DNA from: Thermoanaerobaculia bacterium
GTDB taxonomy: Bacteria > Acidobacteriota > Thermoanaerobaculia > Gp7-AA8
DNA: 64,000 nucleotides
Reading direction: 5' to 3'
NCBI GenBank assembly: GCA_963715895.1
Contig: OY970284.1
Coordinates: 2,441,484 to 2,505,483 of the forward strand
The translations under genes were made by a program, and so were the position numbers. Position 1 is the stretch's first letter. Every line of letters starts with the position of its first letter. The notes under the pieces were generated by a model. That model saw only the letters and a program-made list of their open reading frames with translations. It was not told where the DNA came from and did no database searches. This document shows, piece by piece, positions 59,067-61,781 of this stretch.

Positions 59067-59167
59067 GGGGGTCGGGGGTCGGGGGTAGGAGGTCGGAGAA
59101 GGCAGGCCGAGGGCGCGAAAACCAGAGCGGGTTTTCTCCGACTCCCGACCCCCGACTCCCGACTCCC
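59067..59167. repeat. hairpin with GGGGTCG / GGGAGTC heptad arms (about 33-bp arms, about 33-nt loop) filling the nuoL-nuoM spacer
   Basis: ggggtcgggggtcgggggtaggaggtcggagaa / ttctccgactcccgacccccgactcccgactccc. Confidence 0.75.
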
Positions 59168-59169
59168 GC

Positions 59170-61089
59170 TCATGCCAGCACCCATATAAAGACAATCACT
59201 CCCAAGAAAAACATCAGCGCGTAGTTCCTCACGTTACCGGTCTGGAAGAAGCGCAGCAGGTCGCCGATGGCGGCGACGATGTAGCCGGCCAGCGCCAGGA
59301 TGCCGTCGATCAGGGCGTCGATGCCGCGCCAGAGGAATTGGGAGAATCCTTCCAGCGGGCGGACGATCGTGGCGGCGTACAGCTCGTCCACGTACCACTT
59401 GTTCTCCATCCCGTTCGCGATCCTCGGCAGGGCCTTGGCGAATTGTTCATCGGCGGCCAGGCCGCGTTTGTAGAAGCGGACGTACGCGGCCCAGATGCCG
59501 ATGGCGGCGATGGCGGTGGAGACGAACATCAATCCGTACTCGAGGTTCGGGGCGATCTCATACTGGACCTCCGGGACCCCGGCGATCTCCGGGAAGATCG
59601 GATGCAGCCACGCCGCGAGGAAGTGCCGGTGCGGCCATCCCAGAATTGCCCCGCCGACGGCGGAGAGCGCCGCAAGGATGACCAGCGGCACGGTCATCGT
59701 CCACGGCGACTCGTGCAGGTGGTGCTCCTGCTCGTGCGTTCCGCGGAAACTGCCGAAGAAGGTCAGGTAAACCAGGCGGAACATGTAGAAGGCGGTGCAG
59801 AAGGCGGCCAGGGTGCCGAGGATCCAGATGATGGCGTTGAACCACTGCGGGAAGTAGGGATTGGCCAGCGCCGAGGCCAGGATCTCGTCTTTCGAGAAGA
59901 AGCCGGCCAGCGGCGGAATGCCGGCGATGGCGATCGTGGCCACGAGGAAGGTCCAGTAGGTGATGGGGATTTTCGACTTGAGGCCGCCCATCTTCCTCAT
60001 GTCCTGCTCGCCGCTCATGGCGTGGATTACCGAGCCCGATCCGAGGAAGAGGCAGGCTTTGAAGAAGGCGTGAGTGATGAGGTGGAAGATTCCGGCGGTG
60101 AACGCGCCGACGCCGACGCCGATGAACATGAAGCCGAGCTGGGAGACGGTGGAGTAGGCCAGGACTTTCTTGATGTCCCACTGTCTGATCCCGATCGTTG
60201 CGGCGAAGAGTGCGGTCAGCGCGCCGATGAGCGCCACCACCATCATCGCGCCGGGCGCGAGACGGTAGAGCGCGTTCGAGCGGACCACCATGTAGACGCC
60301 GGCGGTGACCATCGTCGCGGCATGGATCAGGGCCGATACCGGCGTGGGGCCGGCCATGGCGTCGGGCAGCCAGACGTAGAGGGGGATCTGCGCGCTCTTG
60401 CCGACCGCGCCGAGGAAGAGCAGAAGGCAGATCGCCGTCAGCAACCAGTGCTCGACGCCGCCGGTGGCCGCGATCTGCGAGACCTTGGCGAAATCGACGC
60501 TCCCGAAATAGGCGAACATCAGGAACATGGCGATGAGGAAACCGAAGTCGCCGATGCGGTTGACGATGAAGGCCTTCTTGCCGGCGGCCGGGGCGTAGTC
60601 GGTCTCGTAGTAGAAACCGATAAGGAGGTAGGAGCAGAGCCCGACTCCCTCCCATCCGACGAACATCAGCAGGTAGCTCGATCCGAGGATCAGGATGAGC
60701 ATCTCGGAGAGGAAGAGGTTCAGGTAAGCGAAGTAGCGCCCATACCCATGCTCCTCGGCCATGTAGCCGACGGAGTAGAGATGGATGAGAAATCCGACCC
60801 AGGTGACGACCATCAACATGACCACGCTCAGGGGATCGAGCTGGAAGGCGAGATCGGCGCCGATGGAGCCGGAGGAGATCCAGTTGTAGACAAGATCGAC
60901 GTGCCGCTCGCCGGTGGGATAGGCGGCGTGGTACTGCACGACGGCGATCGTCCCGGCGATGGCGGCGCCGAGGGAGGCCAGCAGCGCCACCGCGGTCACG
61001 AAACCCTTGCCGAGGCGCTTGCCGAACAGGCCGTTCAGCAGAAAGCCGGCGAACGGCAGAAGGGGGATGAGCCAGAGTTTGTTGAGCAT
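59170..61089 (-). CDS. nuoL: NADH-quinone oxidoreductase subunit L
   Basis: NuoL/ND5 family, 639 aa (MLNKLWLIPLLPFAGFLLNGLFGKRLG...). Confidence 0.85.
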   Translation of the reverse strand: MLNKLWLIPLLPFAGFLLNGLFGKRLGKGFVTAVALLASLGAAIAGTIAVVQYHAAYPTGERHVDLVYNWISSGSIGADLAFQLDPLSVVMLMVVTWVGFLIHLYSVGYMAEEHGYGRYFAYLNLFLSEMLILILGSSYLLMFVGWEGVGLCSYLLIGFYYETDYAPAAGKKAFIVNRIGDFGFLIAMFLMFAYFGSVDFAKVSQIAATGGVEHWLLTAICLLLFLGAVGKSAQIPLYVWLPDAMAGPTPVSALIHAATMVTAGVYMVVRSNALYRLAPGAMMVVALIGALTALFAATIGIRQWDIKKVLAYSTVSQLGFMFIGVGVGAFTAGIFHLITHAFFKACLFLGSGSVIHAMSGEQDMRKMGGLKSKIPITYWTFLVATIAIAGIPPLAGFFSKDEILASALANPYFPQWFNAIIWILGTLAAFCTAFYMFRLVYLTFFGSFRGTHEQEHHLHESPWTMTVPLVILAALSAVGGAILGWPHRHFLAAWLHPIFPEIAGVPEVQYEIAPNLEYGLMFVSTAIAAIGIWAAYVRFYKRGLAADEQFAKALPRIANGMENKWYVDELYAATIVRPLEGFSQFLWRGIDALIDGILALAGYIVAAIGDLLRFFQTGNVRNYALMFFLGVIVFIWVLA

Positions 61090-61095
61090 GTACGG

Positions 61096-61193
61096 GAAGG
61101 ATGAAGGCAGAGGGCAGAAGGCAGAAGTGTGAGTCGAGAGGCCTCAGGCCGCTACGACTTCATCCTTCTGCCTTCTGCTTTCTGCCTTCATCC
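61096..61193. repeat. hairpin with GAAGGCA heptad arms immediately upstream of nuoL
   Basis: gaaggatgaaggcagagggcagaaggcagaag / cttcatccttctgccttctgctttctgccttcatcc. Confidence 0.75.
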
Positions 61194-61237
61194 TTTGTTC
61201 TCTCCTCGCATCTGCCGATGCGGGGAGCGTCTCCGCA

Positions 61238-61648
61238 TCAGCTCTGATCTTTTACACGTTCCTGGTAGTCATCGGAGGAGGCCGGGTCGAGCTCCCAGCG
61301 GTGTTCGTCGCGACTCCGTTCCTTTTCTCCGACTTTCAGCTCCTCGTCGTCGGCGTACGAGATTCCCATCGCCGCCGCCGTCTCCTCGGTGTCATTCTGG
61401 CCGGGGGTTGGCTGGCTCCCGGCCGACGCCTCGTCGCCCTGCGACTCGGCCATCTCCCACTGTGCGTCGATATCGCCTCCGGACAGCGACGGATCGACGC
61501 CGTTGTTCTCGCGCAACCGTCCCGCGAGCTTCTGCGTCCCCGCCTCGACGTCCGGCATGGCCGGCTCGATGCGGTCGTCGATGCCATTGCGATTCCTGTC
61601 CTTCCGCTCGTCCTCTTCCCAGTCAATGAGCTTCTCTGTCTTGTCCAT
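61238..61648 (-). CDS. acidic, low-complexity hypothetical protein (136 aa) inserted between nuoK and nuoL
   Basis: MDKTEKLIDWEEDERKDRNRNGIDDRIEPAMPDVEAGTQKL...; no TM, very acidic; flanked on both sides by heptad-arm hairpins. Confidence 0.5.
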   Translation of the reverse strand: MDKTEKLIDWEEDERKDRNRNGIDDRIEPAMPDVEAGTQKLAGRLRENNGVDPSLSGGDIDAQWEMAESQGDEASAGSQPTPGQNDTEETAAAMGISYADDEELKVGEKERSRDEHRWELDPASSDDYQERVKDQS

Positions 61649-61693
61649 TTTCGGCTCCTGTTGAGCCTGAAAATGCGACGTTCGTGCCGTCTT

Positions 61694-61781
61694 GAGCTGT
61701 TAGCTCTTAGCTGTTGGCTCTTAGGGGACCGAAGTCACAGATTTGGATGTCCCTAAGAGCTGACAGCTAACAGCTAAGAGC
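61694..61781. repeat. hairpin with AGCTNTT heptad arms between nuoK and the acidic ORF
   Basis: gagctgttagctcttagctgttggctcttagggga / tccctaagagctgacagctaacagctaagagc. Confidence 0.75.

Follow-up and report, generated by a model that had tools for sequence, protein, structure and literature searches.

Tandem-armed palindromes as rapidly exchanged insertions in the nuo operon of a Thermoanaerobaculia lineage

Three spacers of the nuo operon in a Thermoanaerobaculia bacterium (phylum Acidobacteriota) contain long hairpins whose arms are built from tandem heptamers. They lie in a 64-kb stretch of contig OY970284.1 (positions 2,441,484 to 2,505,483; hereafter the window, with all coordinates counted from its first nucleotide). 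Pfam places nuoJ, nuoK, a DUF6335 gene, nuoL, nuoM and nuoN on the minus strand of this region. In transcriptional order, the genes flanking the three spacers are nuoK (61788–62093; Oxidored_q2), the DUF6335 gene (61238–61648; PF19861), nuoL (59170–61089; an open reading frame (ORF) whose product has 95% amino-acid identity to NuoL of soil Thermoanaerobaculia metagenome-assembled genomes (MAGs)) and nuoM (57495–59054; Proton_antipo_M). The position of the DUF6335 gene between nuoK and nuoL is kept across the clade, and there is no nuoI between nuoH (62970–63974) and nuoJ (62087–62611).

Hairpin A (59066–59168, minus strand) occupies the nuoL–nuoM spacer and begins 1 nt after the nuoL TGA. Its 35-nt arms (59066–59100 and 59134–59168, loop 59101–59133) scored as 86% complementary in an inverted-repeat scan and consist of ~4.5 copies of the period-7 unit GGGNGTC, with the inner motif GGAGAA/TTCTCC. 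Hairpin B (61097–61195, minus strand), in the DUF6335–nuoL spacer, has 36-nt arms (61097–61132 and 61160–61195, loop 61133–61159) that are 89% complementary by the same scan, its period-7 units being AAGGATG in the outer and GAAGGCA/GAAAGCA in the inner part. Hairpin C (61695–61782, minus strand), in the nuoK–DUF6335 spacer, begins 5 nt after the nuoK TAA; its 32-nt arms (61695–61726 and 61751–61782, loop 61727–61750) are 88% complementary and carry AGCTNTT units, again with period 7. An earlier note on this DNA, made from the sequence alone, had described the arms as runs of heptamers, and they proved periodic under a formal test: Tandem Repeats Finder (TRF) called period-7 arrays on all six, at 59065–59096 (4.6 copies) and 59138–59168 (4.4) for A, 61103–61127 (3.6) and 61164–61189 (3.7) for B, and 61690–61724 (4.9) and 61753–61782 (4.3) for C. 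The hairpins had no match in Rfam 15, which returned no hit at the gathering score anywhere in the window, and a promoter and terminator scan of the window yielded nothing at the hairpins.

A detector that pairs TRF arrays with reverse-complementary consensus units found seven tandem-armed pairs in the window; 100 shuffles that preserved dinucleotides gave none. Folded as sense RNA, hairpin A reached -72 kcal/mol (z-score -4.6), hairpin B -73.9 kcal/mol (-9.3) and hairpin C -48.6 kcal/mol (-5.5). The stems can pair in several registers, as the note had suggested: shifting one arm by a whole unit keeps ~82% complementarity, against ~28% for off-period shifts. When variant units were examined for mirroring between the arms, complementarity was 0.90 in register 0 and 0.82 in shifted registers, with the chance value for the best of about five registers estimated at ~0.91.

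For comparison, loci of ~13 kb each were collected by a NuoL-based scan, 40 from the Thermoanaerobaculia clade and 40 from other phyla (individual loci are cited below by L numbers), and searched for hairpins with arms ≥20 nt long, pairing ≥78% and loops no longer than 130 nt. The clade including the window (512 kb) contained 148 such long hairpins, 85 of them tandem-armed (70 with period 7, 13 with period 8); the other phyla (488 kb) contained six, one of which was a borderline tandem-armed case. Periodicity scores of the clade hairpins were bimodal, and the density of tandem-armed ones was about one per 6–8 kb. Since 169 of the 209 period-7/8 arrays in the clade (81%) belong to inverted pairs, the inverted pair rather than the array is the unit. 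MAG assemblies may mis-join at repeats, and one might suspect an assembly artefact or chance. The probability of this is negligible, given the absence of pairs from all 100 shuffles, the reading frames preserved across inserts (see below) and the occupation of the same sites in dozens of assemblies made independently, one of them a complete chromosome (L010, OY970380.1).

All three nuo spacers have empty counterparts among the relatives. Upstream of nuoL, the empty and ancestral arrangement (39 relatives compared) consists of a small hairpin with GAGGAGA as its 3' arm followed by the ATG, as in L007, L016, L018, L021, L022, L026, L029, L030 and L033–L037; the window and many relatives have a tandem-armed hairpin wedged between GAGGAGA and the nuoL ATG. 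The corresponding Shine-Dalgarno-like sequence of the window, GAGGAGAG (61200–61207, minus strand), recognised from the sequence and the same 39 relatives as the 3' arm of the small conserved hairpin, adjoins the nuoL ATG in empty-site relatives, and hairpin B intervenes in the window. An empty nuoK–DUF6335 spacer comprises only a conserved leader, GGCACGAACGTCGCA...AGGAG, and hairpins at this site always lie between the stop codon and the leader. The ancestral nuoL–nuoM junction is an overlapping GCATGA, found in 11 relatives (L003, L006 and L007 among them). Elsewhere, this junction holds at least six tandem families (the 7-mers GGGNGTS, AGACCGC, GGGCCGA, GAATGCA and GGACGCG, and 8-mers CGCGGTCT) and at least five non-tandem hairpins. 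In L010, a GTAG-type palindrome family resembling repetitive extragenic palindromic (REP) sequences fills the junction (~7920–8060) in place of a tandem-armed hairpin. Even the closest relative, L015, whose flanking DNA is 92–96% identical to the window, shares only hairpin B: its nuoK–DUF6335 spacer has a different family, and its nuoL–nuoM arms have period 8, not 7. Empty sites and different families at one site thus identify the hairpins as fast-turnover insertions.

Resident copies evolve in a concerted and compensatory manner. At the DUF6335–nuoL site, 93% of the stem cells in 13 orthologous hairpins are paired, and both sides have changed in 14 of 30 pairs; none of 500 shuffles reached this covariation, and slid controls fell far lower. 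A G-C to C-G exchange, for instance, recurs at one and the same position of each of the four units (AAGGATG to AACGATG) on both arms. Intermediates with mixed arrays occur in L014 (AACGATG/AAGGATG), L017 (AATGATG/AAGGATG) and L020. Period 8 is retained at the nuoH–nuoJ site, with the unit drifting through GGTCTCGC, GGTTGCCG, CGGTTGCG and GGTTACGG. Stem mismatches comprised 23 G-U and 39 A-C, so that selection specific to the sense RNA, which we had considered as a source of a wobble signature, finds no support. As a palindrome is the same on both strands, the data are compatible with pairing being maintained at either the DNA or the RNA level. The earlier note had proposed a local generative mechanism of slippage plus templated hairpin repair, and slippage-type dynamics do shape the arms, as the AAGGATG-to-AACGATG change and the 14 double changes at the DUF6335–nuoL site illustrate. 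Its further argument, which took every locus to have a heptamer of its own and dismissed dispersal on that ground, was not supported.

Clustering of unit consensuses defined 27 families, eight of which occur at two or more non-orthologous sites. Arms of GGGNGTS units with the inner GGAGA/TCTCC motif occupy five kinds of site. AAGGATG, GATGAAC and GAAGGCA are found not only at the nuoL site but also upstream of nuoG, close to start codons, and the CGCGGAG copies at 20110, 31983 and 40476 have common termini (TCACGCGGAG...CGCGTGAAA) and part of the loop in common. AGCTNTT, the family of hairpin C, was the one family confined to an orthologous site within the clade set and was tested against metagenomes: its arrays matched more than 120 metagenome contigs, with GC contents, taken as a proxy for taxonomic spread, of 39–68% among the matches listed. 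From 120 AGCTNTT-matched metagenome loci we recovered 48 tandem-armed hairpins, ~37 of them of AGCT type. In L014 (2878–2950, inside nuoG), a GGGAGTC array directly abuts a CAACCGA array, the complement of the GTTGTCG family; arms from different families can thus be juxtaposed.

A BLAST comparison of 60 loops against 1.7 Mb gave matches only to orthologs or nested repeats, partial similarity across non-orthologous sites being limited to two CGCGGAG copies, and at the nuoN site alone the loop resembles the empty-site sequence. These observations, together with the lack of target-site duplications, would suit a purely local origin, in which each element arose in place by slippage and templated fold-back hairpin repair without dispersal between loci. 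So would the mixed arrays of L014 and L017, in which unit variants spread stepwise and both arms follow, and the unequal arms of a hairpin at 43137–43343, indicative of slippage in one arm. Purely local generation does not readily explain, however, why non-orthologous sites and different genomes have the same families in common, down to their inner or outer terminal motifs, or why AGCTNTT arms span the GC range just given. One site moreover switches between unrelated units and between periods 7 and 8 in genomes that are 92–96% identical, and the ATGA junctions offered no spacer sequence from which to build. We therefore rate it as rather unlikely.

The inserts obey positional rules. The distance from hairpin edge to stop codon has a median of 10 nt, and 41 of 88 hairpins lie within 10 nt. 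Only two of 131 hairpins have a T-tract (TTTT within 10 nt past the stem), so the hairpins are not intrinsic (Rho-independent) terminators, in agreement with the blank terminator scan and with the location inside operons. The latter had been emphasised in the earlier note for nuo and for cheR–cheB, and Pfam upheld both labels, with cheR and cheB around 2145–2247.

A second rule concerns junctions at which the genes formerly overlapped. At spacers that were once ATGA junctions (nuoH/nuoJ and nuoL/nuoM, n = 30), the spacer length was 1 mod 3 in 25 cases, compared with 19 of 45 spacers whose downstream gene has its own Shine-Dalgarno sequence (Fisher p = 7e-4). The ATGA frame was open through the insert in 25 of 30 versus 10 of 45 (Fisher p = 3e-7); orthologous copies in these counts are non-independent, though insert lengths and families differ. 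The open frame runs from an ATG overlapping the upstream TGA to a stop overlapping the downstream ATG or just inside the downstream gene, and this relay pattern holds across unrelated insert families and inserts of up to 358 nt. It is present in 16 of 18 occupied nuoL–nuoM spacers. In the window, a relay ORF of 40 codons (59051–59173, minus strand) leads from the nuoL TGA to the nuoM ATG through hairpin A, with ATGA at both ends and the translation MSGSRESGVGSRRKPALVFAPSACLLRPPTPDPRPPRAKQ followed by a stop. Another, of 121 codons (62608–62973, minus strand), leads from ATGA to ATGA across the 358-nt nuoH–nuoJ spacer, through a hairpin at 62661–62917 that resembles a MITE (a miniature transposable element with inverted repeats). 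This non-tandem MITE-like copy fills the spacer. Judged from the reading frames, inserts at formerly overlapping ATGA junctions appear to have been domesticated into relay ORFs through which translational coupling is carried over the insert. We know of no earlier description of relay ORFs across inserts.

Tandem-armed hairpins also reside within genes. G-rich copies lie in frame inside nuoG (L012, 2736–2863; L010, 2699–2802; L001, 2868–2959), where they are translated as GVGSRESGVG...SDTRHPTPD within a linker, and inside nuoN, in the loop before the last helix (L010, 10978–11085; L012, 10926–11050); across the nuoG and nuoN inserts, the translation reads GVGSRES.../...SHSPLPTPHSP. The window itself retains a decayed C-rich arm (CCGACTC-like) of a G-rich hairpin in frame in nuoN (56128–56150, minus strand), a remnant of such a nuoN insertion.

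Do the stems serve the nuo and che cistrons? They might be dedicated RNA elements selected for differential stability, processing or translation, for example as stabilisers between cistrons, targets of RNase III or split ribosome-binding sites. Their sense-RNA stems are very stable and sit precisely after stop and before start codons, pairing at the DUF6335–nuoL site has been kept through sequence change over deep divergence, and hairpin B stands between GAGGAGA and the AUG, which folding would join. Yet no site is occupied in all relatives, and each harbours unrelated elements in some of them; the same families sit in frame inside nuoG and nuoN, and the stems show no sense-strand preference for G-U; the conserved pairing does not single out RNA either, since both strands of a palindrome form the same stem. 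Both the presence/absence polymorphism and the intragenic insertions thus disfavour a dedicated regulatory role, which we consider unlikely.

A separate feature of the elements is their handedness. In 78 of 83 hairpins (~94%), and in 44 of 49 independent family-by-site combinations, G exceeds C in the 5' arm. Because the reverse complement keeps the same arm first, this 5' G-richness is an intrinsic property; a polarity relative to transcription (sense 5' arm G-rich in 54 of 57) was withdrawn as a result of its own, as an inverted repeat reads identically on both strands. The handedness needs a directional cause, either a particular 5'-to-3' synthesis of the arrays or selection acting on any transcript; a C-rich arm emerging first could, for instance, favour Rho loading. 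Arm length is narrowly distributed as well, with medians of 29 nt (4.1 units; interquartile range (IQR) 25–32) for period 7 and 31 nt (IQR 27–32) for period 8. The median loop length is 29 nt.

Such regularities invite the idea that arrays are written de novo at the site, rather than copied from another locus, by a directional process. Repeats might be added, telomerase-like, to the 3' ends of a break, or a polymerase might elongate a self-primed hairpin. A G-rich arm in 5' position on both strands would fit G-rich addition to the two 3' ends of a break. Unique loops, missing target-site duplications and arms of ~30 nt whatever the period would fit too, as would the recurrence of the unit kinds G3-4NNTN and AGCTNTT in distant lineages. 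However, we identified no candidate enzyme or template for it, a single templated activity does not explain the many units per genome, and handedness could equally result from selection on RNA or DNA structure. We regard de novo writing as improbable.

The earlier note was not aware of a described repeat class with these properties, but a partial precedent exists in Xanthomonas. Genomes of X. campestris and X. axonopodis each contain ~185 arrays of GGGAATC/(GGGANTN)n, mostly of four units (Rehm 2015, PMC4692102). Of these, 70–75 pairs per genome are convergent and able to form stem-loops; 89–93% of the arrays are intergenic and lie nearer the upstream ORF (mean 28 nt), a given intergenic site differs in array length and sequence from one related species to another, and a function was not found (PMC4692102). 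Our literature search for precedents returned only this study and MacGregor 2015. The elements described here agree with the Xanthomonas heptamers in their arms of about four units, their convergent orientation with the G-rich arm 5' and their intergenic location near the end of the upstream ORF, and hairpin A belongs with those inverted arrays. Xanthomonas, however, has one G-rich family that was read in terms of G-quadruplexes, whereas the present clade has at least 27 families, most without G-tracts and some with period 8. Empty sites, family replacement, relay ORFs, in-frame gene insertions and compensatory concerted evolution likewise go beyond what was described there.

The G-quadruplex or i-motif function proposed for the G-rich heptamers of Xanthomonas and Nostoc could be considered for hairpin A, whose (GGGNGTC)4 arm fits the G3N4 pattern with about four units, the minimum for a G-quadruplex. 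Among the three hairpins, A alone has a G-rich unit of the GGGANTN type (GGGAGTC fits it), and B and C lack G-tracts. Most families (AAGGATG, AGCTNTT, GTTGTCG, GAGTSCT and GAATGCA) lack them as well and yet have four-unit arms of ~30 nt; the G-tracts of a paired stem would, in addition, be engaged by the C-rich arm. As families without G-tracts share the architecture, the G-quadruplex rationale is not general, and we find it very improbable as an account of the elements.

We favour, with roughly even confidence, a reading in which the hairpins are selfish or neutral palindromic insertions with fast turnover and microsatellite-like arms, retained at sites that preserve expression and exerting REP-like side effects on mRNA. 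The comparative data demonstrate the handedness, the relay-ORF constraint, the rules of position, the concerted and compensatory evolution, the turnover, the spread of families and the insertion status itself; that the elements are selfish or neutral, and that they affect mRNA, is inferred. They would constitute a lineage-wide group of tandem-armed palindromes of 60–190 bp (mostly 60–130), each with a site-unique loop and two inverted arms of ~30 bp, in which a unit of 7 or 8 nt occurs about four times. Rather than having been built to regulate nuo, they would be secondary insertions into an originally compact operon, REP/MITE-like in lifestyle and microsatellite-like in internal dynamics. A limited number of unit families would be distributed across many loci and genomes, and sites would be gained, lost and re-occupied quickly. 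Resident arms would be kept periodic and complementary by unit slippage or homogenisation, combined with arm-to-arm templating or selection for pairing, whence compensatory changes repeated in every unit.

Copies would persist only where, and in such a way that, expression stays intact, which may be the case in four situations: when the copy follows a stop codon directly, when it folds out as a hairpin between Shine-Dalgarno sequence and AUG, when it forms a translatable relay ORF and so restores ATGA-to-ATGA coupling at a formerly overlapping junction, and when it lies in frame in tolerant protein linkers. A parallel to the second exists in genes 38 and 25 of phage T4, where a hairpin between Shine-Dalgarno sequence and AUG splits the ribosome-binding site and unites its parts on folding. 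By analogy, hairpin B between GAGGAGA and the nuoL AUG could be tolerated in the same manner, although the T4 hairpins are short and not repeat-built. In AAGGATG-type hairpins (61097–61195 and orthologs), the 5' arm contains an ATG ~9–10 nt past the conserved GAGGAGA that opens a mini-ORF of 5–15 codons ending in the arm or loop; going by the sequence, translation of this mini-ORF could unfold the stem.

REPs are abundant intergenic palindromes in operons, often near stop codons, that shield upstream mRNA from 3' exonucleases. Liang, Rudd and Deutscher reportedly observed in 2015 that a REP lying no more than ~15 nt from a stop codon makes ribosomes stall and sets off trans-translation. By analogy, REP-like effects are plausible here: stems of -49 to -74 kcal/mol on a polycistronic mRNA would probably shield the upstream cistron from 3' exonucleases and stall ribosomes at a stop codon 1–10 nt upstream, and RNase III might cleave them. 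Under our preferred reading, these would be side effects and not the reason for the elements' existence.

Several points weigh against this interpretation. The handedness (78 of 83) and the narrow arm length suggest a constraint or mechanism beyond selfish DNA, and function could be an alternative reason for the long occupancy of the DUF6335–nuoL site with kept pairing. A family's copies at different sites have common arms and different loops, which simple copy-and-paste does not predict. There is no target-site duplication, the longest direct repeat in the flanks averaging 2.95 nt versus 2.91 nt in permuted flanks; a GCATGA duplication at nuoL/nuoM is confounded with the requirement for a stop and a start codon. 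None of 131 hairpins has the terminal tag GTAG/CGTC at both ends, and no mobilising enzyme was found in the 64-kb window and the ~13-kb loci, where RAYT was not searched for. The sample, moreover, is skewed to the nuo flanks of MAGs, with non-independent orthologous copies and crude gene calls outside nuo. As arms are shared without loops and both target-site duplication and tag are missing, the elements are neither classical MITEs nor classical REPs. Given the handedness, unique loops, missing target-site duplication and fixed arm length, a generative process of a new kind is conceivable.

Several known systems share single traits with the tandem-armed palindromes. Those nearest in lifestyle and in the expected consequences for mRNA are the REPs, bacterial interspersed mosaic elements (BIMEs) and REP doublets forming hairpins (REPINs) of Enterobacteria and Pseudomonas. 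BIMEs join the same inverted REPs by different linkers, which resembles the combination of shared arms with different loops. Here, however, the GTAG/CGTC tag is missing, the arms are internally periodic and belong to many unrelated unit families, and the near-identical copies including the spacer that characterise REPs and REPINs were not found in the window and the ~13-kb loci, loops matching only at orthologous sites. Short tandemly repeated repetitive (STRR) sequences of the cyanobacteria Calothrix and Nostoc and the TAACTGA repeats of Beggiatoaceae are likewise over-represented intergenic tandem heptamers, often near start or stop codons, with several families per genome. They are essentially direct arrays, with "only a few" inverted pairs in Nostoc and one inverted case among 170 TAACTGA sets of Beggiatoaceae (PMC4679880), compared with 81% inverted pairs here. 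The in-frame G-rich inserts of nuoG and nuoN bring to mind Rickettsia palindromic elements (RPEs), which differ from them in having no tandem-unit arms. RPEs are selfish palindromes of conserved 100–150-bp families that insert in frame at tolerant gene sites. Finally, foldback (FB) transposons of Drosophila have inverted arms of short tandem repeats with variable arm length and copy number; FB elements belong to eukaryotes and have arms on the kilobase scale and an associated transposase, and the likeness is architectural only.

The remainder of the window contains further elements of this type. The additional loci listed in the earlier note all proved real, but four of them (15002–15160, 20110–20184, 31977–32057 and 40476–40510) have period 8 rather than 7, one is a single arm and one is asymmetric. 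The cheR–cheB spacer is filled by a period-7 hairpin of GTTGTCG/GTTATCG units (2145–2247, plus strand; -73.8 kcal/mol). A nested period-8 hairpin with outer CGCGGTCT-type and inner GGTTGG/CAACC-type arms (15002–15160, minus strand) lies upstream of a peptidase M3 gene. The CGCGGAG family is represented by a copy with the termini TCACGCGGAG...CTCCGCGTGAAAAA (20110–20184, plus strand) that ends 3 nt before an ATG at 20188, by a second full copy (31977–32057, plus strand) that overlaps the stop codon of a cyclic nucleotide monophosphate (cNMP)-binding gene (31495–31977), with its tandem units starting ~6 nt past that stop, and by a lone 3' arm (40476–40510, plus strand) made of three copies of TCTCCGCG followed by GTGAAA, for which no partner arm was found nearby. 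The unequal-arm hairpin (43137–43343, plus strand) has GTTGTCG/GTTATCG units in 6.9 versus 14.3 copies.

Of 22 long hairpins in the window, ~8 are tandem-armed and ~14 belong to ordinary dispersed palindrome families. Among the latter is the MITE-like family of ~150–310 bp with GGGGGAGAAGGTGCCGACAGGCGGATGAGG in its arms (9720–9873, 32056–32367, 46785–46982, 55014–55289 and, as noted, 62661–62917). Two plus-strand ORFs of equal length and start codon (5367–6530 and 6824–7987) encode a DDE_Tnp_1/DUF4372 transposase (one checked by Pfam). The stretch between them (6593–6736) holds a palindrome of a separate family, GGCACAGACAAGAGTGTCTGTGCC, which recurs at 18740–18884 and 34351–34439. These insertion sequence (IS) copies are flanked by a palindrome different from the tandem-armed hairpins, whose loops are site-unique and have no conserved MITE-like internal sequence. 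A GTAG-type REP-like palindrome, ACGTAGGTCGGACTCTCTAGTCCGAC, at 12274–12376 also differs from them in appearance; it belongs to the family that fills the nuoL–nuoM junction of L010. In addition, the window has a giant ORF of 2262 amino acids (23748–30536, minus strand) with eight copies of a 354-nt tandem repeat (24211–27038), and non-coding tandem repeats of 42–44 nt (3.7 and 2.8 copies) and 63 nt (3.9 copies) at 23084–23369 and 36281–36531.

On the practical side, the ORFs running through these elements will confuse gene callers, and the elements themselves provide population-level markers for strain typing. Their diversity shows the G-quadruplex reading of the only described precedent to be too narrow, and the unexplained handedness and arm-length limit suggest a mechanism of origin to be sought. 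The comparative data translate into testable rules on how compact operons tolerate insertions, and tandem-armed palindromes could prove to be a major, under-described class of bacterial repeats in a widespread soil lineage.

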